Shown here one piece after another: positions 18,401 through 42,300 of a DNA stretch of 64,000 nt. Location of the stretch: the IMG/VR virus record IMGVR_UViG_3300022752_000035, positions 31,985 to 95,984 of that record; one strand, 5' to 3'. This stretch comes from a virus. Position 1 is the first letter of the stretch; the number at the start of each line of letters is the position of its first letter. The notes beneath the pieces were generated by a model that was not told where the DNA came from, searched no databases, and saw only the letters and a program-made list of their open reading frames with translations. A program made the position numbers and the translations under genes.

Positions 18401-20891
18401 TTCCCACATATCCTATTCCATATTTCCAAGGCCCTCTATAAGTAATTCCTGGCCCGCTTAACGATCTTCCAGAATATCCTACAGCAAGATTAAGTATCAT
18501 TCCTTCGTTAGGTCTTTCACCATCTAAAGCTCTTATCTTTAAATAATAGATTCCTCCAACTAATGGTTGACCAAATATTTGATTTGCACTATTTAAATAT
18601 GTTTCTAAACCCGTTGGCCAGTCACCTTCGCCCACACCAGAAATAGTTGTTGGAGAAAATTCAAATCTTGTAGCTCTAGAATTAGTTTGTATTTGATAAA
18701 AAAATGCATTTTCTAAAGGAGTACTAACATATCCAGGACTTGTAAATATATCTGAATTTGGAGGTCTAAATCCACTTATTGCAGAAACTTTAACATTTTT
18801 ATTTTTTGTGATAAGCTCATTTTCGTATCCAATTCCAGTATCATAATAATTATTAAATAAAAATAATTCTCCTTTGCCAGTAATATCTCCTCCAAGTTTA
18901 GCTTCAAAAACAGTATATCCACCTGTATTATTTCCACCAATTCCATTGGTTCCTGTGATTTGCGTTAAATTTTTATTAACTATTTCTAATGGAAAATTTT
19001 TTATCTCTTTATATCCTAAAAGATTTTGAGTACCAGAATAACCGCTGAAATATATTAAATTTGCATTAGAAGCATTGATTCCAGATATTCTAATATAACC
19101 TAAATTATTATATAATGTATTAGAGGATGAGCAATCATAAATAGTAGGCAAAATATCAATAGACTTATTAGAAGGTAATATATAACTTTCATCAAAACGA
19201 TTTCTTTTAATTTTAATTCTAGCTTGAGGATTTCTCACTTCTCTTGGGACTTTAAATCTTATACCAGTTGCAGAATTACTTATTTTAATTCCACTTATTA
19301 AATAATCATTTGGTGCATCAACATTTCCAGTTATACCTAAGAAAAATACTTCAGAATCAGTTAAATTACCATAATCTCCAGAAGTTCCACTAGAACTATA
19401 AATTTCCATTTCATCTAAATATTTAGCGGCTTGTATTCCAGATAAATATCTTATATTAATGTTATTTTCTGATAGTCTTACTGTAGATACTAAAAGATTG
19501 TTTGTAGAAGGAGATTTAATTAAAATACCAGAATTTGGAAAATCAACAGAAAATATTTGAAGTGAAGTTGTTGTATAAGCATTTGGTAATACAAATGATG
19601 CTCTATCTGCAGCAGAATTTATTGTGATATCTTTTTTCAAAACATTTGGTTGACCAAGATTAATATAATTTATACGCTGTAAATATTTTCCACTTATCGT
19701 TATTAATGCTCCAGTACCCGCAAGAACATCATTTGGAGAAAAACCACTAGCAATTAAAGGAGGATAAAAAACATTTAAAATATTTTTAGTTTTATCTGAG
19801 CCATATTTACCAGAAACAGTGATATAATCTGATGAACTATAATTAGGTATATCAAAATATAATCCTGTATTTTCTATTAGAGAATAATTAGAAATGCTTT
19901 GATCTCCAATTTTTAAATCAGTAAAAAATGATAAATTATCTCCAGTTAAAACGATTTGAGTTGATTCTATTAATCCTGTCGTTGGATAAAAACCATAAAT
20001 ATTGGGGTAACCAGAGATATAAAAATTATCAAATTTTGTTCCACTATTAATCCCCCTAAATTTTAAATTTTCTATAATTCCACTTTGATTTCTTCTTATA
20101 TTATAAGGAACTTGGAACTCTATAAATTGTAAAGATCCAGTATTTTCATATTTTTCATAAAGGAAATTTATTAGACCATTTTTTCCATTTCCTATATTTG
20201 GGATAAATTCTACCCCAGTCGTTTGATTAGGCACTGTAAAAATTCCAGAATTAGTTATATCAAAACTGCCTAAAGATCCATTAATTCCAGTTGTAGATAC
20301 TGTTAGTATGGCGTATGAATTAGTATCATATTTTTTAAATCCTTGTAAATAAAATGTATCGCCTATATTATAACCAGATCCATAATTTTGAATATTTCCT
20401 CCAGTAACTCTATATAATCCTGTTTCTATAAAAGATGGATTTACTTTATTTCCACTATTATCTATAAAAGATAGATTTGCTCCTGGATTTAAATTATATC
20501 CAGAAATTTTAACGTACTCTCCTGGTAGAACATTTTTATTATCAAAACCACTTATGATTGGCTGATCTAAAATATTTAGATTAATGTAATTTGATGAAAC
20601 ACTTGCGTCATTATAAACGTAAACTTTATATTTAGATGGAGTAATTCCAGATATGGTGAAACCAACTAAATTATCTCCTAAAGTATTATTAATCCCAGAA
20701 ATATTTTTATTATTTAATCCATCAATAGAAAAATCATATGAAGAATTGTAAATATTTTGTCCAGAGATTTTTATTATGTTTTTCTTAAATTGTTCTCCAG
20801 ATATAAAAATAGTTTCTCCATTAATCGCTATAAATCCAGTAGGAGGAGAAATTACTGGTTGAGCAGATTGTATTGTAAATAACACGCTCAT
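15417..20891 (-). CDS. large tail fibre/adhesin: IPT/TIG repeats, Ig domain, CBM-like module, lectin-like repeats, YadA-head-like GGxxN repeats
   Basis: PIISGF...VKISGYNL; WPTGL...IFGQP; YRGPW; repeated STIGGGxxN, SIAGGVNN and VLGGSNN. Confidence 0.72.
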   Translation of the reverse strand: MSVLFTIQSAQPVISPPTGFIAINGETIFISGEQFKKNIIKISGQNIYNSSYDFSIDGLNNKNISGINNTLGDNLVGFTISGITPSKYKVYVYNDASVSSNYINLNILDQPIISGFDNKNVLPGEYVKISGYNLNPGANLSFIDNSGNKVNPSFIETGLYRVTGGNIQNYGSGYNIGDTFYLQGFKKYDTNSYAILTVSTTGINGSLGSFDITNSGIFTVPNQTTGVEFIPNIGNGKNGLINFLYEKYENTGSLQFIEFQVPYNIRRNQSGIIENLKFRGINSGTKFDNFYISGYPNIYGFYPTTGLIESTQIVLTGDNLSFFTDLKIGDQSISNYSLIENTGLYFDIPNYSSSDYITVSGKYGSDKTKNILNVFYPPLIASGFSPNDVLAGTGALITISGKYLQRINYINLGQPNVLKKDITINSAADRASFVLPNAYTTTSLQIFSVDFPNSGILIKSPSTNNLLVSTVRLSENNINIRYLSGIQAAKYLDEMEIYSSSGTSGDYGNLTDSEVFFLGITGNVDAPNDYLISGIKISNSATGIRFKVPREVRNPQARIKIKRNRFDESYILPSNKSIDILPTIYDCSSSNTLYNNLGYIRISGINASNANLIYFSGYSGTQNLLGYKEIKNFPLEIVNKNLTQITGTNGIGGNNTGGYTVFEAKLGGDITGKGELFLFNNYYDTGIGYENELITKNKNVKVSAISGFRPPNSDIFTSPGYVSTPLENAFFYQIQTNSRATRFEFSPTTISGVGEGDWPTGLETYLNSANQIFGQPLVGGIYYLKIRALDGERPNEGMILNLAVGYSGRSLSGPGITYRGPWKYGIGYVGSNLRRDVVKYSREGVNHWYAAYTNIDSEPQAGNPNWIPFTNEFAATATQILLAEESNITNALNIGQEGILSGYIKTVNDKNVDEGSGFYLGYDNRYNFNKPKFRVGNEDGYIKFDGQGLDILGPLSGVVTTSKNIKNANNIVEADSSVALGINNKIDKKTDNVFIFGTNNLISGSRRSSIIAGKNNVISTVKSFFSDNSTIGGGENNTLLGSFCNIVGGFGNTIDATSTGLSSIANQMFIKNINNEADIYLIEYPSQLFTDELAILTNIESNNNIYKVDKISDITTIDYVLDVYPNINNDNKIKIYNWISLLSPNLYSGSFIGTGNSVCEFKTERTGLNLGSKTYKINFTQPFVNSNELIIMPNLIGNNGVYKSINISGLNRTGFYIDFPNVLEENVLLDYFVGIKGFFTGAELNDGVHLEINKVYPFQKLITGTGYRYDIPLERKGINFFNIYDNNINWFPLGAISGNTSDLRLTLSAELKDNNHYININSLGFTGKYSGENIQVYQTGLKSGENLLYINLLSGILDTGYAPLCNIIQSGNSSKNIYSHFISGKSSTGFYFHTSRPIDQDAQVNVSIYRTGEFNIDNTKINVNSLTYTGFLNNELNINFNNYLNYDSPKVFLSIENINNDNIYLQRLKNIYQTGLNIQLSDNIATGDRIKINYIIFSNTGSGLFDVQQNILIDNSASFTGDINIKFIDKFNLSPKIFGRAYSSLDEIYLHNISNTGNDGFSFSLSAPLSVNQMTGLIYEYIASDLEKDLNIAKSVLSTFNYARLGAFGFSDIGSSTIGGGTGNYIKGLVSSIAGGVNNTIIGDFNLIPGGRSNKIIDIFNPNDQYPKSAFCTVLGGSNNLVTGNLQYTNIVGGSGNLIVNNNNIYSDSFSSILGGSLNIVSGTYSNVLGGTNNLISGSYSNALGKNITIKNSGSIVLSDASTGVKNISQENTLFLNFANGIYITGQDPNHSPIVFDLTKLPTTNSFIPKGGVWLSGGVLCVKT

Positions 20892-25792: not shown

Positions 25793-26389
25793 ATGGGAAT
25801 GGGCACTCCAAATATTTCAAGGTCTTTTGGCTCCGAAGATACTGGATCTATAAATGACGGAATGATTACATGGGCAAATAAATCTTTAGGATATAATTTT
25901 TTAAAAAATGATATAATTAAATATAAAGGAGATTTTTGGTATTGCATTAAAGACCATTTTAAAAATGTAGAAAGTGAACCAGGTACAAACTCAGGTAATA
26001 CATATTGGGGAGGAGTAATAGTCCTTTCAAATAATATGTTAATTACAAAATTTATCTGGACACCTTCTTATACATCTGCTATTCAACATAAACCAAGCGT
26101 TACAACAATTAGATTTGGTAATGGATATGAGCAAAGAATTTCTAAAACCATTAATCCTGATTTAAAAACGTTACAATTAAATTTTGATCAAAGAAATTCA
26201 AGAGAAGCTAGAGCAATTATACATTTTTTAAAACAAAGAGCTGGCGTTCAAGCTTTCGCTTATAATCCAGGAGATATTTATTCTGAACAGAGTTATAGAA
26301 CAAAATATGTTTGTAGAGAATGGGAAACTAATTTTACATTTAAAGAAAATTATTCTGTCCGTGCAAAATTTGAAGAAGTTTCTGCTTGA
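25793..26389 (+). CDS. lambda gpM-like minor tail protein with N-terminal CBM-like module
   Basis: F.W.P...PSVTTIRFGNGYEQR...IN...IIHFLKQRAGVQAF...YVCREW...AKFEEV. Confidence 0.85.
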   Translation: MGMGTPNISRSFGSEDTGSINDGMITWANKSLGYNFLKNDIIKYKGDFWYCIKDHFKNVESEPGTNSGNTYWGGVIVLSNNMLITKFIWTPSYTSAIQHKPSVTTIRFGNGYEQRISKTINPDLKTLQLNFDQRNSREARAIIHFLKQRAGVQAFAYNPGDIYSEQSYRTKYVCREWETNFTFKENYSVRAKFEEVSA

Positions 26390-26410
26390 TGAAAGAAATG
26401 GAGAAATAAT

Positions 26411-28717
26411 ATGGGAATGGGAGAAGTGCCTAATCAAGCTATGCAAGCAAGTGAATATTTTTTGCAAGCGCTTGAGGCTCAAAGATCAATCAATTCGCAT
26501 ATTCATGAGATAGAACCAACAACGCCAGTATTTTTATATGAAATTGATTTAAATGAGATTAAACCTGCAACTATTTCTTATCCAAACAGAAATGGGCCCG
26601 TTAAAGATGGGGTGATAAGAATACATAATGATTTTAATCTTTTTAATATTAATCGAGGAATTATAAAATGGAAAGGTAATCTTTATTTTCCATTTCCTGT
26701 TTATGGTGAACAATTTGATATAACTTCGAATGGCACAATTCCAACTCCTAAAGTTAAATTTTCTAGTCAATTTTTAGATGATGAATTTAATTCATTCTAT
26801 AAATATATAAGAATGCAAATTCAAGAACTAAAAGATATTGTAGGTTCTAAAGTCACAAGAAGAAAAACATTTGTTAGATATTTAAGCCCAGATAATTTTC
26901 CCGCAGGAGTAAATCCTTTTAATACTTTTACAGATACTCCATGGGCATCAAGAGATGGAGAAGCGCTTACTGTAAGATCGTTAGAAAGAGTACCAATTGA
27001 TTTTGCAAAATGGTTAGTTTATACTATCAAATCTATACAAAGTTCAAATAAAATTTTCACATGTCTTCGTACAGACGATAGATTAAAAACTTTAAATATT
27101 AATTTACAAAAACAAATCTATAACTTAAATTCTTTAGATTTTTTTAACTTATTTATTAATGATGATATTAATTTAAGTCCAGACGTATTAGACGCATTTT
27201 CTTCTGATATTTTTATTATTCAATCTAATAATACTTATACAAATATTATTCCTGTCGCTCAAAATGAATTTAAAAAAATAAATACAAATACACCAATTAA
27301 GGTTTTATGTTATTATAGCTTAAGGAATTTCAGTAATACAAGTAGTGCTTTAATAAATTATCCTGTTACTTTTTCTGAATCTAGCTCTGAATTAATGACG
27401 CTTCTTTCTTTTAGATCAATAAATGAAACTATTGCAGAAAAATTTAATTATTCTATATCTACCCAAACCTCAACAAGTTTTACTACTCTATTTTCAAAAT
27501 CTTTAAATGGTAATTTTGATATTAATTATCTAACAATTCCAACGGGTGTTTATACTGGAGTGAATCCATATTCAAATGAAGATGCAAAATTTATTGGATT
27601 AAAACTAAATCCAAATTTTGGTTCTGCTACGTCTGGAGAGTATGATATCGTTTTTCCAGTAACATTTTCGAATGTACCAAAAATATTATTTAATAGTTGG
27701 GGAAGTGCAGGGTTCTTATATGATCAATATTTAAAAAATATTACTTCTACAGGATGTACATTTGTAGCAACTCATACAGGAAACAATGCTCAATTACAGA
27801 CTCAAAATATTAATTTAATTGCAACAGATTACATAACAGACCAACTTACGCCACCAAATAATACTCAAATATATACAGCGTATCAAAATATGGCAAAGAA
27901 TAATTTAAACGAAATAAATCAAAAAAGAATTGATATTTATGAAGTGGAATTAACTCCAGATATATACTATATTGATAGAAAAGTGCAAGAAGATTCTCAA
28001 AATGTTATTTATGAATTAGCTTCATTACTTGATGTCGAAGGAGTAAAATTACCAGGAAGAATTTTATTATCTAAAAATTGTCCATTTACTTATCGTGGCG
28101 AAGGATGTTTGTATGAACGATATGATAGATTAACTGTAGTTCATTCTGGGGTGTATGGAGGGATTGGCTCGGTAATTAATGCAAATTCTACAGCAAATTC
28201 AAATGGTATATCAAAATCTAACTTATCTTTTTCTCAGCAATGTCATGGTCTTCAATCTGCCCCGCCTGTTGCAAACGCTTCGGATAATTCATTTTCTCAA
28301 TATAGGCAAGGAGATTGGAGAGATCGAGGAACATGGCAACAAGGTATAACTTATTATTATGGAAATTATATATATATAGAAAAAAATTATATAAAATATT
28401 ATTTTGTGTGCAAACAACAGCACACAGCCGATTTAATTAATTGTCCACCAAATTCTCAATTCTGGGAGTCTGATACGTGTTCAAAAACTTTAGTTGGTTG
28501 TAGAGCTAGATGGAGAAATAATCCAAATTTTACTAAAAATTTATTATCTGTTAATCATGTTTTTGGTAATAATCAAATTGTTGATCCTTTATTGAAAATA
28601 GAAGTAAGTGCTCCCAAAGATGTTAATGGTACTCAATTAATGGGTGTTTTACCTTTTGGTGGATTCCCATCTGTAGAAGGAAAATTCCAATCTCAACAAA
28701 GTATGCCAGGAGTTTAA
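26411..28717 (+). CDS. lambda gpL-like tail-tip protein with large insertions
   Basis: LYEIDL, RRKTFVRYL..NF, YYIDRK..E..YELAS, CPFTYRGEGC, DTCSKTLVGC, LPFGGFP. Confidence 0.87.
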   Translation: MGMGEVPNQAMQASEYFLQALEAQRSINSHIHEIEPTTPVFLYEIDLNEIKPATISYPNRNGPVKDGVIRIHNDFNLFNINRGIIKWKGNLYFPFPVYGEQFDITSNGTIPTPKVKFSSQFLDDEFNSFYKYIRMQIQELKDIVGSKVTRRKTFVRYLSPDNFPAGVNPFNTFTDTPWASRDGEALTVRSLERVPIDFAKWLVYTIKSIQSSNKIFTCLRTDDRLKTLNINLQKQIYNLNSLDFFNLFINDDINLSPDVLDAFSSDIFIIQSNNTYTNIIPVAQNEFKKINTNTPIKVLCYYSLRNFSNTSSALINYPVTFSESSSELMTLLSFRSINETIAEKFNYSISTQTSTSFTTLFSKSLNGNFDINYLTIPTGVYTGVNPYSNEDAKFIGLKLNPNFGSATSGEYDIVFPVTFSNVPKILFNSWGSAGFLYDQYLKNITSTGCTFVATHTGNNAQLQTQNINLIATDYITDQLTPPNNTQIYTAYQNMAKNNLNEINQKRIDIYEVELTPDIYYIDRKVQEDSQNVIYELASLLDVEGVKLPGRILLSKNCPFTYRGEGCLYERYDRLTVVHSGVYGGIGSVINANSTANSNGISKSNLSFSQQCHGLQSAPPVANASDNSFSQYRQGDWRDRGTWQQGITYYYGNYIYIEKNYIKYYFVCKQQHTADLINCPPNSQFWESDTCSKTLVGCRARWRNNPNFTKNLLSVNHVFGNNQIVDPLLKIEVSAPKDVNGTQLMGVLPFGGFPSVEGKFQSQQSMPGV

Positions 28718-28718
28718 T

Positions 28719-29465
28719 ATGGAATTTAATTCTCAAATTAAAAATTATATTAAAAATCTAGCTGTCAAAAAATTAGAAGAAGAAGTTTGTGGGTTTATAT
28801 ATTTCGATGAAAAAAATTATAAATTTGAAATTTATCCATGTAAAAATAGAGCAGAAAATAAAAAAGATAATTTTACAATATCTCCACAAGACTATTTAAA
28901 TTGCTCAAATTTAGGTAAAATTATAGCTTGTTATCATTCTCATATAAATGAAAATATTGAATTTAGTGAGATAGATAAAAATAATAGTAATATTTATAAT
29001 ATACATTATATACTATATAATATTAAATATGATATTTTTAATATTTATACTCCAAATAAAGAAAATAATCCATATGTTGGAAGACCTTTTATACTTGGCA
29101 AATCTGATTGTTTTACATTAATGCAAGAATATGCATGGAAAGAAAAGAAAGTCAAAATTGAATTTCCAAAAGAATTAATTTACCCAAGATATTTAGAAGA
29201 TATCAAGGATTTATATGAAAATAACTTTAAAAATCAAGGTTTTTTGAAATTAGATAAAAACGTTAAACTTCAAAAATTTGATGGTCTTATGATGCTTTTC
29301 CCAGCTATTTCAGATAAATTTCCAACACATGCCGCAGTTTATATAGGAGATGGCCTTATTTTGCATCAACCATTTAATTCTTTTTCTTGTGTAAATATAT
29401 ATGATAACTTTTTAAAAAAACATACTAGCTATGTTTTAAGGTATAAGGAGCTTATTAATGGTTAA
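28719..29465 (+). CDS. lambda gpK-like tail assembly protein (JAB/MPN + NlpC/P60)
   Basis: EEVCGFI...YHSH.......SEID (JAMM motif); GRPFILGKSDCFTL...HAAVYIGDGLILHQ. Confidence 0.88.
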   Translation: MEFNSQIKNYIKNLAVKKLEEEVCGFIYFDEKNYKFEIYPCKNRAENKKDNFTISPQDYLNCSNLGKIIACYHSHINENIEFSEIDKNNSNIYNIHYILYNIKYDIFNIYTPNKENNPYVGRPFILGKSDCFTLMQEYAWKEKKVKIEFPKELIYPRYLEDIKDLYENNFKNQGFLKLDKNVKLQKFDGLMMLFPAISDKFPTHAAVYIGDGLILHQPFNSFSCVNIYDNFLKKHTSYVLRYKELING

Positions 29466-30768
29466 AGTAAAATTACATGGATTTTTAGGCCAAGAAATTG
29501 GAGAAGAATGGAATCTAAATGTCTCTAGCGTTGCAGAAGCATTTAGAGCTATAGAAGCAAATACAAAAAAATTAACTAAATTTTTTATTAATCAATCTGA
29601 GAAAAATGCAAAATATGAAATATTAATTAATCATCGTCCTTTATGGGTACCAAAAGCAGAAGAAATGCCAACAGATTACAAAGATGTAAATAAAAAACAT
29701 TTTGCAAAATTATATGAATCCGAAATGTTTATGAATTTTGGTTCAGAGTTAAAAACTATAGATATTATACCAATATTAGAAGGAGCTGGTGGTGGAGGGG
29801 GTGCGGCTGGAGGATGTTTTCCAGCTGGAACAAAAATATCTACTCCACAAGGAATTAAAAATATTGAAGATCTTAAAGAAGGCGATGAAATTTTATCTTT
29901 TGATAAAGAGAAAAATATACAAATAGATATGATAGAAAAAGTCTTTGAACATGAAAATAATAAAATTTTAAAAATTACGTTATGGGATGGTTCAATAATA
30001 AGAGCTACAGGAAATCACTGGTTTTTTAATGAATATAATAGATTTACTCCTTTAGAAAATTTTAAAATTGGAGATGTCTTAATACATAAAAGTGGCGACG
30101 TTATGCCAATTGAAAAAATAGAAGAAGATGGAAATGAAAAAGTCTATAATTTTCATGTTTTAAAAAATCATACATATATAGCTGATAATATTTTAGTGCA
30201 TAATGGAGGAGGAGGAAAAGGAGGAGGTGGAGGAAAAGGTGGTGGTGGAGGAGGATTTAAAAGTATTTTTGCTGTATTTTTAGCTATTATTTTAGCTCCA
30301 GTTACAGGAGGCGGCTCTCTTGGTATATTAGGGATGTTAGCTCCTGCAATTTTAGGATTAGTAGCTCTTGGAGTATCAATGTTATTAATGAAGCCGCCAC
30401 CAATGGTAAGTCCTCAACAAATAGCGAATCCTTCAGCGGATTTTGAAGCTTCTCCAGATTCTGGAGGAGGAGAACCATCTTATACATTTAATGGTCCAGT
30501 CAATACAGTAGGTGAAGGTGGACCAGTACCAATTGGTTATGGAAGATTAATTATAGGAAGTCAACAGATTTTTAGTTCATACGATCAATTATATCGTATA
30601 CAATCAAGAAGTAATACATATGAAAGCGATGGTAAAGCGCCAATAGGCGCAGGAGCAGGGGAAAAAAACTATCCAACAAAAAGTTTTTATTTTACTCATG
30701 TTGGTTATCCAATAAACATTCAAGATGTCCAAGGAAATTCAATGTCAGATAGCTCATTATCAATTTAA
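29458..30768 (+). CDS. lambda gpI-like tail assembly protein (ubiquitin-like N-domain) containing a Hint domain
   Basis: VKLHGFLG...SVAEAFRAI...IDIIPILEGAGG; hydrophobic segment; SYTFNGPVNTVGEGGPVPIGYGRLIIGS. Confidence 0.87.
   Translation: MVKVKLHGFLGQEIGEEWNLNVSSVAEAFRAIEANTKKLTKFFINQSEKNAKYEILINHRPLWVPKAEEMPTDYKDVNKKHFAKLYESEMFMNFGSELKTIDIIPILEGAGGGGGAAGGCFPAGTKISTPQGIKNIEDLKEGDEILSFDKEKNIQIDMIEKVFEHENNKILKITLWDGSIIRATGNHWFFNEYNRFTPLENFKIGDVLIHKSGDVMPIEKIEEDGNEKVYNFHVLKNHTYIADNILVHNGGGGKGGGGGKGGGGGGFKSIFAVFLAIILAPVTGGGSLGILGMLAPAILGLVALGVSMLLMKPPPMVSPQQIANPSADFEASPDSGGGEPSYTFNGPVNTVGEGGPVPIGYGRLIIGSQQIFSSYDQLYRIQSRSNTYESDGKAPIGAGAGEKNYPTKSFYFTHVGYPINIQDVQGNSMSDSSLSI
29815..30204 (+). other. 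Hint (intein-like/BIL) domain, 130 aa, inside gpI
   Basis: CFPAGTKI...ATGNH...VYNFHV...TYIADNILVHN, followed by Gly. Confidence 0.9.
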
Positions 30769-30771
30769 TTT

Positions 30772-33700
30772 ATGCCAAAAAAATGTAAAGATTGTGATCC
30801 AAATAAATATATCGAAGGGATAGCCTGGAGAGGAAAAAATGGCATTTCTTATGATGGTTATACTATATATAATGATGTTGGGAAACCGCTTGCATCAGAT
30901 TCAACATTGGCAGATGTAAACGATTTAGTAGATGCTTATAATCCAATTTTTTCTCAAAGCACAACCTATCCAAATCCATTACCAGAGTCTCCCACGAATG
31001 GTGTAGAAATAACTGGTATAGATCGAGGCCAAGGGTTTTGGTTTGTATGGAGTTTTATAAATGGTTTAGTCATGTATGGTACGCCTGGAGTTGGAGTAAA
31101 TGCTGCAAGTATAATTAGCTCAGGAACAGCTTCGGCAAGACTAGGTCAAGGCTTTTCTTTTAATGTACTTTTAGATCAAGTAGCCTCATATTTAACTTAT
31201 ACCGATTTTGGTGTCCTTGCAGACACAAATACAGATGATAGACTAAGATTTAGCAATACAAATAGTAATACAATACCATTTATCAAGACTAAAATTAATT
31301 ATGTAGGATATTATACTGGAATTATTCAGTCCGTCTTAAATGGAAATAGATATGTCAAAATAAATAATGTGACTCAATTAGAAACTTTTAAGGCTTATAA
31401 AAGTTTAACAATAAAATGTACAGATGCAGAAGGCAATGACCCAATATATGTTACTAGTGCACCAACTATACATGTTTTTAAAAACCAAAGTTTTTCTTAT
31501 TCTTTGACTACAAATTTAGCATCAAATAAATTTAATGCTTATTTAGATCAAAGTTCTTTAAATATTTTAGCAAATTTAGGACTAGCATGGAATCCTAGTT
31601 CTAAAACCATAACAGGAGTAGGTTCAACAAATTTAAGTTCAGAGATAAAAAATACAAATTTAAATTTTACTATTTATGGGCCAAATGCAGACGCAGGAAA
31701 TAGAATAAGTTTTAGTTTAAATTTATTATATGGAGCACAAAATACTCAAACAGTATTACCAACGGTTAGCGCTACAACATTTAATCGAGTTGTAGGTACA
31801 AAATTTGAGCAAGGATTAGCAGGCTTAAATAATAAGCATACAATTATAGGAATTTCTTCTTTACCAGAAGGATTAGTTTTTAATTCTACTAGTAAATCTA
31901 TTACTGGAACACCAAAACATGCGGGTACTTTTTATGCATATGCAAGCTGTTCTAATGCTAGAGGATCTAGCTCGAAAGTGACATTAACTTTTAATTTTAG
32001 TCCATATTCACTCAATAATGATAAATCTCAAAGCACTTTTCCAAGTAAAATAAATTTACCTTCATGGGATTTTAATGCTATAAAAAATAATAAAATTGTC
32101 TTAGATCTATATACTACTGGAGATGATATTATATATTTTAAAAAAATTAATACAAATGAATTTGAAACTATAAGAAAAAATGGGGAACCAAATAATATCA
32201 CAAGTAGAGGAGGAAGGATTTCTACAACATCTTTTTCTCCTGGTCAAGGACAAGAAGGCGAAACTTGTTTTTGGATTAAGATTGATGATCCAACTAAAAC
32301 AAATGTTAAAAATCCAGAACTTGATATCTCTATAGAAGGAAATTATGCAATACAATATTATTCTACGAATCAAAAAGATTTAGTAGGAAATGTTTGTTAT
32401 ACTCCAGACGTTAATGCAAGTGGTCCAGCATCTACTCCATTTATACAAAATTTAACAGTAACCGCAACAGATACAATTAAAACAGCTTTTAGCGCAAATC
32501 CAGCCGAAAATATGCCAACCATAACGGTTAGCCCCACTCAAGTAGAGCATCAGGTCGTATTTGATCTTGGAAATTTGGGTGTGGGTGTTACTCCAAATTT
32601 TTCTACAGTCACTATAGTAAAACAGAGATTATCTGGACGAGAAGTAGTCACTGTGACTCCAGGATCACAATATAGAAGTACCATAGAAAATAGCTCAATA
32701 TTTGCTCGACAAAGATTATCTAAAAGTGGACTTTTAAAATATCCAAATGGAATTCCTGCCTCAGAAGGCACATATACATTTTACGTTATTCTTGCTGATA
32801 CATGCACTTTTAATAAAAGCACGCAAAGATTTAGTTTATATATAAATACATATACGCCAAGAGCAGGAGATGTATATTCTTGTAAATATAGAAGTACATG
32901 TTTTCCAGCTGGCACAAAAATACATACTCCACATGGAGATAAAAATATAGAAGATTTAAAAGAAAATCAAGAAGTTTATGGATATGATGAAGATCAGAAT
33001 TTAGAAATATGTAAAATATCTCAAATATTTGACGAAGGAAAAGATCCTCAACCAATTACTAAAGTAACATTAGAAGATGGATCTACTATAAGATGCACAA
33101 AATCTCATCCATTTTTAACAGAAAATAATGAATATAAATTCCTTATAGATTTAAATATTGGTGATTATTTAATGACTTTTAATAAAAAGAAATTAAAAAT
33201 TATCAACATTGAAAACGATGGATTTGAACTTGTGTATAATTTTGAAGTAGAAAAATATCATAATTATATTGCTGATAAAATTTTTGTACATAATAGAGGT
33301 GGAGGAGGTAGAAGAAAGGATAATAAAGAATATTATCAAGATTATACATTACCAAATTCAACTGTACCGAGCAACTGTGTTAAAGTAGTCAGTAGAGCAG
33401 GAGATCGTCAACAAGTAGATAATTATGGTTATAGATATGCAAATAAGTTAAAAGACACAAAAGATATAGGAATAACATCTTTAACAAATATATCTTTATT
33501 AGATATTCTTGGAGAAGGTCCTATTGAGGGAATTGTAGACTATGATATTGTGCCTAATGACGGAGCTCAAATTGGTGATATAGGATATAAAAATGGAGTG
33601 AAAATAGTCAAATATGAAGGTCCAGCATCAATAGTAAGATCTATTTATTGGAATGAAATACCTGTTGCAGATAATACATATCCAGTTAAAGGTTCTTTGA

Positions 33701-36246
33701 ATTTTGAATTTATAAAATTAGCATATGATTATGGTGATGGCGCGCCAAGACATACAGTAATTGAAGAGTTAAAAAATATAAAATTAGAAGAGTCTTTCTA
33801 TGCCAGAAAAGTTAATAATGGTCAATATATACAATCTCTTGTATTAAAAAATGATACTACAGGACAAACTTTAGCAAATGAAATAAAACTCCCAAGAAGA
33901 CTAACAAGCACAAAAGTTGTTGGAAATAAACTTTTTGGAAAAAGGAAATTTCAAGACGGAAGTTCTAAAACTTATAAAAAATCTTTAACAATTTTAACAA
34001 AAGATTTATATGGACTAAGGCTTCATTTAAAAGCTTTAAGTTTATTTAAAAGTGTTGTTGACATGACTATTTGGGATAGCGCCGATCAAGCTTCAAAAAA
34101 CGCAGTAAGTGGCAGAACAGATCGATTGGAAATGACATTTTATCTTTATCTAAAAAGAATAGATTATATTCCAAACGTTGGCAAACAAGTTACAATTATA
34201 CCTAATCCAGATTATACAGGAGTATCAAATGGAACATTTACAATAAGCGAAGAAGCATATTATAATAATATATACAGTAAACAAAATGATGTATTAATTT
34301 TATTCTGGCCACCAGATTGTCCAAATCCAAATAATAGTAATCCTAATTGTAATGGCCCAGATGGATACAAAAGACAACCAGCAAATTATACAGAATTTAT
34401 TAATGGAAGAACAACTTATTCTCATAGACACGACGGAGCAATATATACGGTCTATGCTTTAGACGTCAATAGATTACAAAAAGATTTCCGTACATCTTTA
34501 CAAGATTATATCAATAAACAACAAAGTTCATTAGACGGAGAAGCGAGAGATTATGGTAAATTGACAATTGCTGGAAAATTAAATCAAGGACCATATATAG
34601 AAACTTTTGAATGGACAGGGTTAGATAGATATACAAAATCTACTACAGTTGGTTGGGAAATAGAAATTGAACCAGTCTACGAAGAAAGCGTTGATCCAAA
34701 TATAGTAATAAAAAGTTCTATAGATTCAATAACTGAAATATATGACGATTTATTAGTTTTACCTCATACCGCTGGGGTTTTAACTACATTTGATTCAAGA
34801 TATTTTACTAGTATACCTCAAAGAGCTTATGATACAAGATTGCTTAAAGTTAAAATTCCAAGTAATTATAATCCATATTCAAGAACTTATAATGGAATTT
34901 GGGATGGAAATTTTAATTTAGGCTGGACGGATAATCCTGCATGGTGTTTTTATGATTTAATAACTAATAGAAGATATGGATTAGGAAAATATGTTGATCC
35001 AAATCTTACTGATAAATGGACATTATATGAAATTGCTCAGTATTGTGATCAATTAGTAAGTTCTGGTGGTTCTGGAGATGGAAAAGAACCAAGATTCACA
35101 TGTAACGTATTAATTAGCACTAGAGAAGACGCTTATAAAGTTGTTAATGACATGGCAAGTATTTTTAGAGCCATTGTATTTTATAACGCTGGATTAATAT
35201 TCACCTCTCAAGATAGACCAAAAGAACCAATTTATATATTTAATAATAGTAATGTAAAAGATGGGGAATTTACATATAGCAATACAAGCAAAAGGGTAAG
35301 AAGAAATGTCGCTTTAGTTAGGTATAATGATAAAAATAATTTTTATAAACCAGCGGTAAAATATGTTGAAAGTAGAGAAGGATTAATTAGATTTGGAATA
35401 AAAGAGATGGAAGTAAGTGCCTTTGGTTGCACAAGTGAAGGTCAAGCAGAAAGATTAGGCAAATGGACATTGCTATCTGAAAATTTAGAGTCTGAATTAG
35501 TAAATTTTGAAACAAGTTTACCTGCAATGTATTTAAAACCTGGAGATATTGTATATATACAAGATCAAAATCGTCAAAATAAAATTCTTGGTGGAAGGAC
35601 TTATGAAGTAAGTAGAAATTATGCAATTTTAGATGTAAGATATGAAGATATTTCTGGATTTTTACCAGCGATAAATAGTTGTAATTTTAATATTTTAACA
35701 CCAGCAGGTAATATTGAAATCGGTACAGAAACAGGAAACGCAATTGTAAAATTAACTTCGGAAAATAAATTATTTAGCGTGGTAGGAGATAATGGACAAA
35801 GAATTTTAAGTTCAGGGTTAAGTACATCTTTAATTAGAAAAAAACAAATTCAAACAGTAAAATTTGAATCAAATTATACTATACAAGATCCAATGGATAC
35901 AAATATTTTTAGTAATAACATTAGCATGCAAAATACAGGTAATTTCCAAGGATATACCAGAATAGACTTTGGTGGACAATATTTAGATAACACAGAGCAC
36001 ACTTTAATGCAGAATACTGTTTGGACGATAGAAATTAATCCAGAAAATTATGATTATAATAAAAGTCCAAGCGTTTCTGGATTTAGTAATCCAGGCGTCA
36101 AATATCCAGGAGCATCATTAGAACCCTATATGGATAAAACACAAAAATTTAGAATCTTAGATATTGAAGAACAAGAAGAGTATAGATATAAAATAACTGC
36201 GCTTCAATATGATGAAAGTAAATATGATCTAGGGGATAATATCTAA
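30772..36246 (+). CDS. lambda gpJ-like central tail/hub protein with N-terminal Ig region and Hint domain
   Basis: LDILGEGPIEG, KVKIPSNYNP..R.Y.G.WDG.F...WTDNPAWCFYDL...RYGLG, EPRFTCN, AFGCTSEGQA.R.GKW. Confidence 0.9.
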   Translation: MPKKCKDCDPNKYIEGIAWRGKNGISYDGYTIYNDVGKPLASDSTLADVNDLVDAYNPIFSQSTTYPNPLPESPTNGVEITGIDRGQGFWFVWSFINGLVMYGTPGVGVNAASIISSGTASARLGQGFSFNVLLDQVASYLTYTDFGVLADTNTDDRLRFSNTNSNTIPFIKTKINYVGYYTGIIQSVLNGNRYVKINNVTQLETFKAYKSLTIKCTDAEGNDPIYVTSAPTIHVFKNQSFSYSLTTNLASNKFNAYLDQSSLNILANLGLAWNPSSKTITGVGSTNLSSEIKNTNLNFTIYGPNADAGNRISFSLNLLYGAQNTQTVLPTVSATTFNRVVGTKFEQGLAGLNNKHTIIGISSLPEGLVFNSTSKSITGTPKHAGTFYAYASCSNARGSSSKVTLTFNFSPYSLNNDKSQSTFPSKINLPSWDFNAIKNNKIVLDLYTTGDDIIYFKKINTNEFETIRKNGEPNNITSRGGRISTTSFSPGQGQEGETCFWIKIDDPTKTNVKNPELDISIEGNYAIQYYSTNQKDLVGNVCYTPDVNASGPASTPFIQNLTVTATDTIKTAFSANPAENMPTITVSPTQVEHQVVFDLGNLGVGVTPNFSTVTIVKQRLSGREVVTVTPGSQYRSTIENSSIFARQRLSKSGLLKYPNGIPASEGTYTFYVILADTCTFNKSTQRFSLYINTYTPRAGDVYSCKYRSTCFPAGTKIHTPHGDKNIEDLKENQEVYGYDEDQNLEICKISQIFDEGKDPQPITKVTLEDGSTIRCTKSHPFLTENNEYKFLIDLNIGDYLMTFNKKKLKIINIENDGFELVYNFEVEKYHNYIADKIFVHNRGGGGRRKDNKEYYQDYTLPNSTVPSNCVKVVSRAGDRQQVDNYGYRYANKLKDTKDIGITSLTNISLLDILGEGPIEGIVDYDIVPNDGAQIGDIGYKNGVKIVKYEGPASIVRSIYWNEIPVADNTYPVKGSLNFEFIKLAYDYGDGAPRHTVIEELKNIKLEESFYARKVNNGQYIQSLVLKNDTTGQTLANEIKLPRRLTSTKVVGNKLFGKRKFQDGSSKTYKKSLTILTKDLYGLRLHLKALSLFKSVVDMTIWDSADQASKNAVSGRTDRLEMTFYLYLKRIDYIPNVGKQVTIIPNPDYTGVSNGTFTISEEAYYNNIYSKQNDVLILFWPPDCPNPNNSNPNCNGPDGYKRQPANYTEFINGRTTYSHRHDGAIYTVYALDVNRLQKDFRTSLQDYINKQQSSLDGEARDYGKLTIAGKLNQGPYIETFEWTGLDRYTKSTTVGWEIEIEPVYEESVDPNIVIKSSIDSITEIYDDLLVLPHTAGVLTTFDSRYFTSIPQRAYDTRLLKVKIPSNYNPYSRTYNGIWDGNFNLGWTDNPAWCFYDLITNRRYGLGKYVDPNLTDKWTLYEIAQYCDQLVSSGGSGDGKEPRFTCNVLISTREDAYKVVNDMASIFRAIVFYNAGLIFTSQDRPKEPIYIFNNSNVKDGEFTYSNTSKRVRRNVALVRYNDKNNFYKPAVKYVESREGLIRFGIKEMEVSAFGCTSEGQAERLGKWTLLSENLESELVNFETSLPAMYLKPGDIVYIQDQNRQNKILGGRTYEVSRNYAILDVRYEDISGFLPAINSCNFNILTPAGNIEIGTETGNAIVKLTSENKLFSVVGDNGQRILSSGLSTSLIRKKQIQTVKFESNYTIQDPMDTNIFSNNISMQNTGNFQGYTRIDFGGQYLDNTEHTLMQNTVWTIEINPENYDYNKSPSVSGFSNPGVKYPGASLEPYMDKTQKFRILDIEEQEEYRYKITALQYDESKYDLGDNI
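32899..33294 (+). other. Hint (intein-like/BIL) domain, 132 aa, inside gpJ
   Basis: CFPAGTKI...CTKSHPF...VYNFEV...NYIADKIFVHN, followed by Arg. Confidence 0.9.
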
Positions 36247-39302: not shown

Positions 39303-42300
39303 TTAGCGACCTAAGTCTCGTCCTTTGCTTCCTTGATATAATACTCCGCCTGGACGTTGTTCTTCTACAATAACTTTCAATATTTGTTGTCTTAGTAATT
39401 CTGCTAATACTCTGGATCTTTCCATAGTCTTTTTGAACTTTTCTTGATCTGTTTCTTGATTGGTTCCAGAATTTTGATCTTCTTGTTTCGTTGAATCTGT
39501 TGTTTTACCATTTTGATCAACGTTAACATTTATACTAATATTATTTGTTACTCCTCCTGCTCCTGTTGTATCAGAAGTAGTTGCACCACCATCTTCTCCT
39601 TGAGCTTTAGTTCCTTTATTTTGTTCTTCAATTCCTTTATTTAATTGTTCTAAGGATTTTACTAATTTTGTAATAGATTCTACAAACTGATTTCTAGAAT
39701 TATCTTGTTGATTAGAAGCTCCACCACCGACAGAAGGTAATGCTGTTCCAACTGGCCCACCTTCTGCAAATCCATTAATTTGACCTCTGTTTAATCTATC
39801 AAAAAATGGTTGTCCAAAACGATCTACTGTGTCTTTTCTAATAACATATTCTCCGCCCATAAGCATAGCAGGAACATCATCTTTAGCTGAACTTCCTCCG
39901 TAAATCATTCCTCCTGTTGCTCTACTTGCCCAACTTGGAGTGATTCCTAATCTACTTCCAGTAGAAAACCAATTACTAAAAACACTTCCTAAAGAATTAA
40001 ATCCAGATTGATAACCTAGTCCACCAAATCCACCAAAATATTGGCTACCAAATGCATATGGGCTATAAGTATTTGGCGTCATTGGAAATTTAAACATATT
40101 AAATGCAGACAAAGATGAAAATGGACTAGCGCCAATATAATTTAAATAGTTATTAAATCCTCTTTCTCCAAATGCAGAATATCTATTTTTGAAGTTATTA
40201 CCATAAAATGATGAAAATCTTGATGCTAATTTTCCGTAATCTCCTTTATTTTTTAGATCATATAAACTTCCAATACTTTGATATAAAGTAGGAGCATTTC
40301 CAGAAGTTTGATTTACAATATTTTGTAAATTTTGGAAAAATGGCAGGATTTGATCTGGAGATATTTGATTGATTCCTAAAAAGTCTTGTTGAGTAATAGC
40401 TTGAGCAACTGCTTGGGTAGTTTGTGGAGTGACTTTAGTGCCTCTTAAATAATCTCCCATAGCAGGAGATGGAAAACTCATTCTAGTTTGATATCCAGCA
40501 TTAGGATTAAAAATACTTTTTTCATATAAATTTCCGCCTAAATTATATAAAGCATTATAACCTTTACCAGCTAAATTTTTCATTCCACCTAAACTAGCCA
40601 TCAATGCTCCACCAATTCCACCAGCTCCTCCTCCAATCGCTGGCATTTTTATTCCAGCATTAGAAATTGTATTTGTAACGCCACCTTGAGGAATATTAAA
40701 TGGAGTGGCATTTAATCTATTAGTATTGAAAGCAGCAGAACTACCAGTAAAGGTAGGAGTATTAGTTGATTTTAAGAAGTTTGTTACAACATTAGCACTT
40801 CTTGCTTGATTTGCAAATGGGTTAGGCTGTATTCCTATGGTATTTATTCCATTAGTTATACTATTTGTTGGACCAGAAAAAGCTGTTAATGGAAATGATT
40901 GTTTTGATGGTAATCCAAAACCAGCCATAACAGCAGGAGTATTTGTACCAGCTATATTTCCTGCTGGAATACCCATATTCATTGCTGCAATTTTTGTTGC
41001 ACCAGTTTTATTTAATTGAAAATCAAAATGAGTTCCAGTCGCTCCAGGAGTTTGAGGCCCTTCAAAATTTAAAGAATAATCTTTTTCAGAAAGACCCATG
41101 CTAGATAAATAATCTTTAATTTGCTGTTTACCAGCTGTATAATCGTTTAATGTAAAGTCTCCTTTAAATCCAGTTCTATGAGATGTTCCTGGAGCTCTGA
41201 CTCCAGCATGATAAAGATCATTCATTGCAGTTAATCTGTTGAAATTAGAACCTAAAGCTCCTTGAATTCCACTCATTAAATTTAATAATTCTGGACTATT
41301 ATATCCACCACCAAAAGCTTGACCACCCATTTTTTGTAAATCTGCATACGTACTATTAGTTGTTAATCCCATTTGAGCTAATGTGTAAGTATTTCCATCT
41401 GAACCTTTAACTCTTAAATTTAAAGCGCTCGCTGGAAGATATTGATTTGCCATACCACCAACTTGATAACCACGAACTAAACCACCTTTTGCGTAACCTC
41501 TGCTATAACCAAAAGGGTTTGTATTTTGATTTAAGAAATCATAAACAAGATTTCCACGCCCAGGAGCAATAGGAGCTACAGGAGAAGCAAAATTTAAAAG
41601 ATAATCTTGTTGAGCATTTTGAGTATAAGTTTGAAAACCTGCTGGCGCGCCTAATCCAACACCAAATTGAAATCCGCCGATACTAGAGGTTGGAGCAAAA
41701 TTTTGTCCTCCCATTCCTCCGCCAAATCCACCTTGATTTCCAAATTGTGGAAATAATTGAGCTTGTTGAGCGAATGAATCTCCATATCCTGTTCTTTGAC
41801 CTCTTTCAATTGCATCGCTTATAGCTTTTTTCTGATCATCTGTAAGCTTATTACCTACTATTGCTCCACCAGGTTGACTAGAAAATTGTGAGAATTTTCC
41901 TCCTAAAATATCTTGAAAAAGTCCTACTCCTGTATTAAGTACTCCACCTAATATGCCTCCAAGTCCTCCCCCGCCACCTCCCCCGCCAAAACCACCTAAA
42001 AATGGACCAGCAAGATTCATACCAAAGTTCAATAATCCACCAATTAACATATTTGATTTTGCTCGATTATATTGATCCATCCTTTGTTTATTTATTTCAT
42101 CCGCTTGTCTTTGAGCTTCTTTTCTTTGTTCTTCAACTTGACGATATTGTTCATTATATCCTGTTTTAAAATTAGCTACTTGCTCTTGGTAACTTTGCAT
42201 TCCTAAAAATCTTTGAGTTCTTAGAGCGTTCATTGGATTATTCTCATCCATTAAACTTCTACTACTTAATAGATCTGATATATTAAATCTTCCTGTTAAA

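Follow-up and report, generated by a model that had tools for sequence, protein, structure and literature searches.

A type-A bacterial intein-like domain in the linker of a lambda-type gpI tail-tip protein, with predicted self-processing

Bacterial intein-like (BIL) domains have been described in secreted proteins of bacteria, in polymorphic toxins and in the BUBL loci of ciliates. In polymorphic toxin systems, pretoxin HINT (PF07591) is a self-cleaving domain that releases the module downstream of it. Classical inteins have Cys, Ser or Thr at the +1 position and occupy conserved parts of the active sites of enzymes for replication or packaging. One example of the type-A BILs is that of Clostridium thermocellum (PDB 2LWY; Amitai 2003, Dassa 2004 and Aranko 2013, as cited in PMC4031507). 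Type-A BILs mostly cleave and splice a little, via aminolysis; in splicing, the freed N-terminal amine attacks the thioester, and the 2LWY BIL is among those reported to ligate without a side-chain nucleophile at +1 (PMC4031507). In the BUBL locus of Tetrahymena (PDB 6Y75 and 6TMM; Dassa 2004 and Chiarini 2021, as cited in PMC8616854), BIL2 lies between two ubiquitin-like (Ubl) domains and forms Lys-isopeptide conjugates without ATP. Ubl domains are also part of the gpI/gpK module of phage lambda (the TAPI and TAPK families of Iyer, Burroughs and Aravind 2006, PMC1779556), where JAB is predicted to free the Ubl at its C-terminal Gly (PMC1779556). The literature that we searched contained no report testing this predicted JAB cleavage of the gpI Ubl. 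In lambda virions, gpI is visible only through its C-terminal part (residues 101 or 135 to 223), which plugs the lumen; cryo-EM maps never show the gpI N-domain, and virions lack gpK (PMC10721106, PMC11101478).

The locus described here lies in a window of 64,000 nucleotides, the whole stretch of DNA that was analysed, from an uncultured freshwater phage. It shares with lambda the gene order M-L-K-I-J and the gpI/gpK module itself: a Ubl with a C-terminal Gly, a Gly-rich linker and a C-part (the features of the TAPI family) and a gpK whose JAB and NlpC/P60 sites are both intact. Unlike lambda, it has a Hint domain in the gpI linker, and its gpL (768 aa) and gpJ (1824 aa) are far larger. The gpI-like tail-tip protein precursor (positions 29458..30768, plus strand, as are all tail-tip features given below; 436 aa; phrog_32, E = 3.8e-24) overlaps the 3' end of gpK with its 5' start. 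It consists, from N to C terminus, of a ubiquitin-like domain, a Gly/Ala spacer, the Hint, a Gly/Lys linker and a lambda-type plug part. The first-pass annotation had reported such a Ubl-Hint gpI next to gpK; the open reading frames and residues are as it gave them, and the Hint is far beyond chance. Because bridging contigs from three runs in two studies span the Ubl, the Hint and the C-part with zero differences, gpI is not an assembly artefact.

The Ubl domain of gpI (29458..29784), of the ThiS/MoaD beta-grasp type, covers residues 1-109 and ends at G109. Its ubiquitin-like nature, proposed in the first-pass annotation, is borne out by an AF2 model (pLDDT 91.4 for residues 1-112), for which VIA-align ranks only SAMP1, MoaD, CysO or Urm1 among the top 24 matches (Z 5.6-8.0, over the whole domain, with Z 7-8 reached for SAMP1 and MoaD). 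With the same model, the best Foldseek match had E = 0.017, and none reached 0.001. G109 is the family's conserved C-terminal Gly and is invariant in 40 gpI sequences. The Ubl is not fused directly to the Hint, as had been thought: ten Gly and Ala residues part G109 from C120, and the Hint therefore lies inside the gpI linker. This N-side spacer, AGGGGGAAGG (29785..29814, residues 110-119, read from the sequence), places G119 at -1. The residues just before the Hint are ...PILEGAGGGGGAAGG, and those just after it are the C-side linker GGGGKGGGGGKGGGGGG (30205..30255, residues 250-266; Gly at +1, Lys at +5 and +11), followed by hydrophobic helices. Close relatives carry Hint-less gpI alleles (P0029-P0033; exteins 64-72% identical) with a single continuous poly-Gly/Lys linker, of which AGGGGGAAGG is a part, in which the C-side linker has its counterpart and which runs unbroken; relative to these alleles the Hint insertion is exact, and the alignment across the site is scar-free.

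The C-part of gpI (30256..30765) begins with two hydrophobic helices (residues 275-282 and 288-309 in the AF2 model), which are followed by a conserved plug and beta-strand region (…KPPP…GEGGPVPIGYGRL…). It matches the tail assembly protein I chains 9l9p_A (E = 1.1e-7) and 25vf_9 (E = 1.5e-5) and, weakly, lambda gpI itself (8iyk_I, E = 0.075); the Pfam family Lambda_tail_I (PF06805) gave no match to gpI at E up to 0.01. This part corresponds to the region of lambda gpI that forms a trimeric plug in the tail-tip lumen (PMC10721106, PMC11101478).

The gpI Hint (29815..30204, C120-N249, 130 aa) is a type-A BIL domain with a complete catalytic set, and from its sequence we predict autocatalysis. 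PT-HINT (PF07591) is its best Pfam family (E = 4.6e-11; 43.6 bits, cut-off 27.7), and its best sequence match among solved structures is the C. thermocellum BIL 2LWY (E = 1.2e-12). In AF2, residues 120-249 have a pLDDT >90. Foldseek returned 67 matches with E up to 0.001; those listed are inteins, BIL domains or Hedgehog domains, with 2LWY first (TM 0.86, rmsd 1.7) and the conjugating BIL2 of Tetrahymena BUBL (6Y75) second, although the identity to BIL2 is only 23%. The second rank of BIL2 is a counterpoint to plain cleavage. The gpI Hint shares with the type-A BILs the fold, Cys1, the TxxH motif (block B, T184-G-N-H187), a terminal His-Asn (H248-N249), a size of ~130 aa, and the lack of both a +1 nucleophile and an endonuclease. 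Type-A BILs reside in bacterial secreted or surface proteins, whereas here the hosts are phage gpI and gpJ, and the sites are poly-Gly linkers at module boundaries, unlike those of known type-A BILs. In contrast to pretoxin HINT systems, gpI has no toxin module, and the part that would be released is a structural component of the virion.

The catalytic residues are retained across 55 unique related Hints with identities down to about 30%. Cys1 and the block-B His are kept in all 55 and the block-B Thr in 52; the terminal His-Asn occurs in 54, the single miss being an artefact of how the sequence was cut. Cys, Ser or Thr at +1 was found in 0 of the 55, and in 40/40 unique Hints from related loci this residue is G, K, R or M; in P0001-P0028 it is G. 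The first-pass annotation held that the gpI Hint could not splice canonically, and the residues agree: the Cys, Ser or Thr of canonical class 1 inteins is replaced by Gly250 in gpI and by Arg842 in gpJ. The phage mini-intein gp41-1 (6QAZ) resembles the gpI Hint in fold, size, Cys1 and terminal HN (31% identity); unlike mini-inteins, the related Hints lack a +1 nucleophile and the gpI site is a low-complexity linker. The absence of an endonuclease, and of a +1 nucleophile from all 55 sequences, led us to reject a canonical mobile intein.

The Hint has a GC content of 24.6%, similar to the phage as a whole, and a dN/dS of 0.04-0.28, in the same range as the Ubl and the gpI C-part, although the ratios are rough because dS is near saturation (0.7-1.2). 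The dN/dS values bear on whether the gpI Hint is an inert or retained passenger, either left unprocessed or a decaying intein relic. The flexible linker could tolerate an extra domain outside an assembly intermediate, but the catalytic residues are kept in 55 sequences, dN/dS matches the low values of the host domains, and the C-part must by homology fit the lumen as a trimer, where we infer that there is little room for three 130-aa domains (PMC11101478). A passenger is most improbable.

A second Hint, in gpJ, was left out of the stretch that the first-pass annotation covered. The gpJ precursor begins with an Ig-rich module of 709 aa (30772..32898) that has a weak, sub-threshold match to He_PIG (E = 0.004; 18 bits, cut-off 24). 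The BIL-like Hint follows (32899..33294, C710-N841; Thr at -1, Arg at +1; Intein_splicing, E = 4.3e-12), preceded by non-Ubl sequence, and then the canonical gpJ part, the central tail fibre or hub (33295..36246, residues 842-1824; phrog_31, E = 1.5e-126; Phage-tail_3). With the gpI Hint as query, no Hint beyond the gpI and gpJ pair was found in the 96-kb contig. A minus-strand ORF (15417-20891) also encodes 1824 aa and is unrelated to gpJ. In the relatives L011 and L017, the modules that flank the gpJ Hint site are separated by a stop codon and the start of a new gene, so that the N-terminal module is a gene of its own. The L011 stop falls exactly at the position of the gpJ Hint (the ORF ends ...AGDVYSCRYT and stop), and the separate ORF of L017 ends ...AGDVYSCWYDQRVDGKY and stop. 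In other relatives, the two gpJ modules are fused directly, without a Hint. Cleavage appears sufficient at the gpJ site, given that L011 and L017 make the flanking modules from two genes.

The gpJ Hint is a paralogue of the gpI Hint (49% identical) and belongs to a separate, site-specific Hint lineage; P0027, which was wrongly cut, was left out of the Hint tree. The two Hints are paralogues in neighbouring tail-tip genes, and the lambda products of these genes are in contact (PMC10721106). They might work together to cross-link gpI and gpJ, with the N-terminus freed by one Hint capturing the thioester of the other. Such pairing is exceedingly unlikely: the gpI and gpJ Hints are separate site-specific lineages rather than a co-inherited pair, and single Hints occur in many relatives (gpI only in ~16 loci, gpJ only in ~10). 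All four possible gpI/gpJ Hint combinations occur among related loci. Paired cross-ligation was rejected on the grounds that single-Hint phages are common.

The explanation that we consider probable is that the type-A BIL in the Gly/Lys linker of gpI removes itself after translation, most likely by plain self-processing while the tail matures. Judging from the catalytic residues, which are conserved, and from the chemistry published for BILs, an N-S acyl shift would convert the G119-C120 junction to a thioester. Cyclisation of Asn249 would then release the C-part with an N-terminal GGGGK. Most of the thioester would be hydrolysed; in some molecules the alpha-amine of the freed Gly may attack it instead and join the linker again. 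What counts would be the Hint-free C-part, which by homology with lambda gpI would form the trimeric plug in the tail-tip lumen. The Ubl head would be an assembly-stage appendage, which the Hint, the gpK JAB or both would free; the JAB active site is predicted to lie around the G109 tail. We suspect that the gpJ Hint plays the same role between the 709-aa Ig-rich module and the gpJ core.

Splicing of the BIL type could instead be the main outcome. In this case, the alpha-amine of Gly250 would attack the G119 thioester after cyclisation of Asn249 and restore a continuous gpI, and gpK would then treat the Ubl as in any lambda-type phage. Ligation would restore precisely the linker of the Hint-less alleles, Cys1 and TxxH are conserved throughout, and the direct fusion of the two gpJ modules in some relatives is consistent with a joined product. 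With Gly at both -1 and +1, steric hindrance is lowest and the pair is the best suited to aminolytic ligation, so that splicing could predominate in gpI; type-A BILs including 2LWY can ligate without a +1 side-chain nucleophile (PMC4031507). However, the published type-A BILs yield mainly cleavage products (PMC4031507), the gpJ modules are separate genes in two relatives and ligation is therefore dispensable there, and the gpJ N-terminal Hints of relatives, whose N-extein is a leader of ~20 aa, would merely re-attach that leader. We regard splicing as the main outcome, together with this fate of the Ubl, as rather unlikely. Cys1 and TxxH are still conserved in Hints with the ~20-aa leader, which shows that the thioester step itself is under selection. 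C-terminal cleavage alone fails to explain the conservation of Cys1 and TxxH, unless both steps are mechanistically coupled.

In the extein tree, Hint presence and type changed (by gain, loss or replacement) about four times within the clade, with Hint-less rows in two places and Hint subtype 2 likewise in two; in this tree P0014 is mis-scored as Hint-less despite Pfam Hint domains, and the fragment P0026 and rows beyond P0060 are left out. The Hint-less alleles, the repeated changes on the extein tree and the occurrence of all four gpI/gpJ combinations indicate that the Hint is dispensable. Among the best 150 representative clusters (50% identity) of the gpI family, a Hint is present at the gpI linker site in only 2. 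The first-pass annotation had suggested that homologues be surveyed for Hints at this same site: relatives do carry them in the same gpI linker, but related Hints are also found in gpJ and in poly-Gly linkers of other tail proteins. The clade is known from metagenomes only. A tblastn search of 50,697 phage records found no full-length gpI relative in cultured phages, and only separate matches to the Hint or the C-part. Hint-less joins were found in 0 contigs in four freshwater or lake runs; contigs drop rare variants, so this count does not speak for the absence of such joins. The sequencing runs include none from RNA. As part of the same self-processing reading, and with the same likelihood, the gpI and gpJ Hints are probably long-resident optional cassettes that are not essential to assembly and in which selection keeps catalysis intact.

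The tail assembly protein gpK (28719..29465; 248 aa; phrog_30, E = 1.8e-53) has both peptidase domains of its family, with the JAMM motif and the NlpC/P60 Cys-His-His triad that characterize TAPK. Its JAB (JAMM) domain (28761..29024; motif E22, then HSHINENIEFSEID) matches Pfam Prok-JAB over residues 15-102 (26.8 bits, cut-off 25), and residues 122-240 match NLPC_P60 slightly below the cut-off (21.5 bits against 23). Among 30 homologues, E22, H73, S83 and D86 are invariant and H75 nearly so, in keeping with the intact JAMM motif recognized in the first-pass annotation; C131 and H204 of the NlpC/P60 domain are likewise invariant and H216 nearly so. A predicted complex of gpK with the Ubl scored 0.62, against 0.00 for the best of three controls. 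Runs share at least 95% of contacts, partner pLDDT is at least 83, and JAMM residues 22, 73, 75, 83 and 86 contact Ubl tail residues 104-112. The mark that this score passes was reached by 58/80 solved complexes and 2/110 mismatched pairs, counts that hold only roughly because the alignments were our own. JAB-ubiquitin complexes have already been solved, and the gpK-Ubl result may therefore reflect likeness to those structures.

The first-pass annotation proposed that the Hint, the Ubl and JAB form an E1-free conjugation system, in which the Ubl-Gly thioester would be passed to the epsilon-amine of a Lys (K254 or K260, or one in another tail or host protein) and JAB would act as the isopeptidase. 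Like BUBL, gpI has a beta-grasp Ubl immediately N-terminal of a BIL, here after the 10-residue Gly/Ala spacer, and a thioester could activate the Ubl without E1 or ATP. A system of this kind is already known, since a Ubl-BIL that works without E1 or ATP has been published for Tetrahymena BUBL (PMC8616854). In favor of conjugation, BIL2 forms such isopeptide conjugates (PMC8616854) and is the second-best structural match of the gpI Hint, the domain before the Hint is a genuine MoaD/SAMP-type beta-grasp, Lys occurs 1-11 residues downstream of most Hints of the family, and the tail of the Ubl is gripped by JAB in the predicted complex, a prediction that may echo solved complexes. However, Lys is common anyway in an AT-rich genome, the linker lysines are also present in Hint-less gpI alleles, and a gpK with its JAMM intact is also present in loci that have no Hint, while some Hint-bearing phages have no gpK. 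JAB is predicted to hold the conserved Gly of the Ubl, and the thioester would lie 10 residues beyond this Gly. BUBL is eukaryotic and has a Ubl on both sides of its BIL, whereas the part downstream in gpI is a membrane-active plug; unlike BUBL, the gpI Hint is optional among close relatives, is rare in the wider gpI family and has been repeatedly gained or lost, and Hints of its family are found with no Ubl before them, in gpJ and in other tail proteins. Relatives without Hints argue against an essential ubiquitin-like ligation system. The first-pass interpretation is partly supported: of the fates that had been proposed for the Gly~Cys thioester, hydrolysis and attack by the freed Gly are realistic, and a dedicated conjugation system with JAB as deconjugase is unsupported. 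The idea of E1-free conjugation is chemically sound but lacks specific support here; we regard it as very unlikely as the activity of this gpI. A full cycle, in which a BIL2-like Hint would transfer the Ubl without E1 or ATP to Lys residues of the gpI linker, the tail tip or the host envelope and the gpK JAB would reverse the transfer, has a slim chance indeed of being correct. If true, it would be a viral, self-contained ubiquitin-like conjugation cycle serving as an assembly checkpoint.

In a partial search of the literature, we found no description of a BIL or Hint domain in phage tail-tip proteins, and only papers on terminase or RNR inteins and on toxins. The relatives of this phage amount to an unusually clean natural experiment: one and the same junction is bridged by a Hint, fused directly or split between two genes, and these three forms argue for a role of the Hint as a self-cleaving linker. 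The natural Ubl-Gly-BIL fusion of gpI resembles the way in which ubiquitin thioesters are made in the laboratory, and is a compact candidate for probing E1-free conjugation beyond ciliates. The locus also allows the removal of the Ubl head in lambda-type tail assembly, and the agent of that removal, to be tested.

The insert in the gpI-like protein of the window (29458-30768, +) is a Hint (Hedgehog/intein-fold) domain by every test used. The protein reads MVKVKLHG...TIDIIPILEG(109)AGGGGGAAGG / C120 FPAGT...ILVHN249 / GGGGKGGGGGKGGGGGG, followed by hydrophobic helices and then the conserved ...KPPP...GEGGPVPIGYGRL... part. The Hint exceeds the family cut-off of Pfam PT-HINT (E 4.6e-11), and its best PDB sequence match is 2LWY, a 'bacterial intein-like domain' (E 1.2e-12). 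Residues 120-249 are modelled by AF2 with pLDDT >90 throughout, and Foldseek ranks 2LWY first (TM 0.86), BIL2 of Tetrahymena BUBL1 second, and then the gp41-1 intein. The N-terminal domain, modelled separately (pLDDT 91.4), is a genuine beta-grasp, or ubiquitin-like (Ubl), domain: in VIA-align, its 24 best matches are without exception SAMP1, MoaD, CysO or Urm1 (Z 5.6-8.0) and cover residues 1-110, reaching the C-termini of the matched proteins. Sequence, Pfam, PDB, AF2, Foldseek and VIA-align thus uphold the Ubl-Hint gpI, with C120...N249 and Gly at +1, of the first-pass annotation. That annotation also had the Hint fused directly to the end of the Ubl, which we refine. The conserved terminal Gly is G109, invariant in 40 sequences and ten residues ahead of C120, so the Hint sits within the linker and not at the Ubl terminus. 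Contigs from three runs bridge the junctions between the Ubl, the Hint and the C-part (the end of gpI that forms the plug in lambda) with zero differences, which rules out a chimeric assembly at gpI.

From 80 IMG/VR loci and the protein database we obtained 55 unique related Hints. Cys1 and the block-B His are present in all 55, the block-B Thr in 52, and the terminal His-Asn in 54, the single miss being a cutting artefact of the extraction script. Position +1 holds G, K, R or M, and none of the 55 has C, S or T there or contains an endonuclease. Judged on these residues, the family is by definition that of type-A bacterial intein-like (BIL) domains (Cys1, TxxH, His-Asn, no +1 nucleophile, no endonuclease). 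Type-A BILs reportedly form an N-terminal thioester and cleave at the C-terminus via Asn cyclisation (PMC4031507, citing Amitai 2003, Dassa 2004 and Aranko 2013). The same article reports mainly cleavage products, along with some ligation by attack of the freed amine on the thioester (PMC4031507). The protein search for close gpI homologues yielded 28 Hint-bearing clusters, which share 51-90% identity with the window and each have Gly at both -1 and +1.

Close relatives can lack the Hint. In five clusters (P0029-P0033; 291-299 aa), whose exteins, the host sequences flanking the Hint, are 64-72% identical to those of the window, Ubl and C-part are connected through a single unbroken linker, ...EGAGGGGGGGGGKGGGGKSGGGKGG... 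This linker carries the lysines too, which therefore belong to the linker and not to the Hint. The site hosts two Hint subtypes, of 130 aa and about 147 aa. On the extein-only tree, in which P0014 was mis-scored, the Hint-less rows occupy two positions, in one of them alongside subtype-2 row P0028 (support 99%), and subtype 2 is likewise split between two positions; the Hint state has thus changed about four times in this one clade. A more distant lineage (L036-L039, L047 and P0132) carries a Hint 32-35% identical at the same gpI boundary, with the junctions ...VPVLQGAG/C...VHN/KGLLGIIL... and a hydrophobic helix directly after. Across the whole gpI family, Hint insertion is rare: in a search with a Hint-less query, only 2 of its 150 best representatives at 50% identity have a Hint between Ubl and C-part. 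Many representatives of the family reach lengths of 600-1600 aa, with the gpI part N-terminal and then a large C-terminal extension (P0120, P0131, P0136, P0138, P0145, P0146, P0126 and P0230 are among the long proteins), and the Hint profile found no match in these extensions. Pairwise dN/dS of the gpI Hint against nine relatives is 0.04-0.28, a rough range because dS is near saturation, and one shared with the Ubl and C-part; its GC of 24.6% resembles that of the phage. We therefore regard the gpI Hint as an old resident under purifying selection, and reject the notion of a decaying relic.

The window belongs to an IMG/VR virus contig (95,984 bp; CheckV completeness 63%; GC about 28%), and the stretch is represented in runs from freshwater and lake-water metagenomes of two studies. 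Pfam and PHROG annotation identifies a lambda-type tail-tip module on the plus strand (25793-36246 of the window), in which gpI is accompanied by gpM-like (25793-26389, +; PF05939), gpL-like (26411-28717, +; PF05100), gpK-like (28719-29465, +) and gpJ-like (30772-36246, +; 1824 aa) proteins. The gpL homologue has 768 aa versus 232 aa in lambda, and its Phage_tail_L match comes as two separate segments, implying a large insertion; gpL-like ORFs of more distant relatives measure 354-491 aa (stop-to-stop lengths). A tape-measure-like protein (39303-47645, -; 2780 aa, PF10145) is encoded on the other strand, convergent with the M-L-K-I-J block, an unusual order for a lambda-type tail module. A DNA polymerase III alpha-like protein (846 aa; PF07733, PF17657, HHH_6) is encoded at 8365-10905 (+).

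We consider the comparison with other Hint sites to be the most informative evidence. The gpJ of the window contains a second Hint (C710-N841; 32899-33294, +), 49% identical to that of gpI, with Thr at -1 and Arg at +1. At this site the Hint follows an N-terminal module of 680-1370 aa with the conserved flank ...RAGDVYxCxYxxT/C. The flanking modules are joined through the Hint in the window and L004-L009, among others, and fused directly via a variable linker in L003, L010, L013-L016 and L019. They are two separate genes in L011 (L011:5679-10874) and L017 (L017:9322-14294), indicating that two free proteins are viable at this junction. The upstream ORF of L011 ends ...TPRAGDVYSCRYT at its stop, exactly at the ...TPRAGDVYSCKYRST/C position of the window, and the downstream ORF starts with the counterpart of the window sequence after the gpJ Hint. 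Elsewhere (L041-46, L048, L053-54 and L078), gpI is Hint-less and a Hint stands at the N-terminus of gpJ, after a leader of 17-25 aa. In the L041-46, L048 and L078 group (e.g., L041:6901-13543), gpJ begins with a leader of about 20 aa, the Hint, KGG and poly-Pro, and gpL and gpI have no gpK between them. L053 (L053:60-1738) has two tandem gpK-like ORFs, neither with a recognisable JAMM motif, upstream of its gpI and gpJ. These leaders resemble the last Ubl strand (...EIQRIDIVQGEGGGG/C in L053 versus ...LKRIDIVPVLEGAG in gpI of the same phage); either the Hint may have been copied from a gpI site along with part of its flank, or the family may prefer that N-flank. The same Hint family also occurs in poly-Gly linkers of other, probably tail, proteins (P0095-P0111), several of which carry PF05268 (Gp38-type adhesin); their +1 residue is G in most and K in several (P0096, P0099 and P0110). 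Related loci have both the gpI and gpJ Hints, either alone, or neither, and each site has a separate lineage on the Hint tree. The gpI and gpJ Hints of the window thus represent neither a recent duplication nor an obligate pair.

The first-pass annotation was right that gpK keeps a full JAMM motif (E22; HSHINENIEFSEID); gpK also has an NlpC/P60 Cys-His-His triad, and in 30 homologues the residues of both are invariant or almost invariant. The Ubl of gpI, with its conserved terminal Gly, and the Gly-rich linker were described by Iyer et al., who predicted that the gpK JAB domain frees the Ubl at that Gly (PMC1779556). A predicted gpK-Ubl complex supports putative binding: it scores 0.62 (best of three controls, 0.00), at least 95% of contacts recur between runs, partner pLDDT is at least 83, and JAMM residues 22, 73, 75, 83 and 86 contact Ubl 104-112 with G109 central. 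Among solved complexes 58 of 80 reach the score mark, and among mismatched pairs 2 of 110, a rough calibration since our own alignments were used; the pass may reflect likeness to solved JAB-ubiquitin complexes. Should the prediction hold, the JAB cut would lie about 10 residues upstream of the Hint, and the Ubl could detach with or without Hint action. In lambda, cryo-EM reveals the gpI C-part (starting at residue 101 or 135 and running to 223) as a trimer that plugs the tail-tip lumen beneath the tape-measure C-terminus, with two hydrophobic gpI helices proposed to enter the outer membrane; the gpI N-terminal domain was never resolved, and the virion lacks gpK (PMC10721106, PMC11101478, PMC12617516). 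A protease also cuts gpH, the tape-measure protein of lambda, within a glycine-rich region (PMC12617516); the JAB or NlpC/P60 domains of gpK would be obvious candidates for this step, a proposal not seen in the part of the literature covered.

The first-pass annotation had envisaged an E1-free conjugation system, in which the Hint thioester could, among other fates, attach the Ubl to another tail or host protein. The chemistry is sound and published: in Tetrahymena BUBL loci, BIL2, flanked by two Ubl domains, links the Ubl that precedes it to lysine residues in other proteins, with no need for ATP (PMC8616854, on Chiarini 2021 and Dassa 2004), and this BIL2 is the second-best structural match to the gpI Hint. 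One observation sustains the idea: Cys1 and TxxH persist when the N-extein is no more than a short leader, which suggests that the thioester step matters in its own right. Even so, the comparative pattern argues against a dedicated system in the phage, which we consider very improbable: close relatives can do without the Hint, its family also follows non-Ubl sequence, and the JAB and linker lysines are independent of it, gpK with intact JAMM being found at Hint-bearing and most Hint-less loci alike.

The catalytic set of a type-A BIL is complete in the gpI Hint and subject to purifying selection; the Hint occupies a flexible linker at a module boundary and is dispensable in close relatives. 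We propose that after translation the Hint would form a G119~C120 thioester and N249 would cyclise, releasing the C-part with a GGGGK N-terminus to assemble as the luminal plug. The thioester would be hydrolysed or partly captured by the freed Gly amine, and the Ubl would depart via the Hint route and/or JAB cleavage. Self-removal dominated by cleavage is the outcome that we somewhat favor; ligation as the main outcome seems unlikely. Solely the fate of the thioester separates the competing readings.

Previous work already covers the type of domain, the gpI/gpK module and the chemistry of Ubl-BIL fusions. In the part of the literature covered, we found no published description of BIL domains in phage tail-tip proteins or of a BIL interchanging with a gene boundary. 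Cutting by the Hint at both ends would reproduce the two-protein state of the gpJ junction, and this one junction occurs in three natural states: Hint-linked fusion, direct fusion and separate genes.
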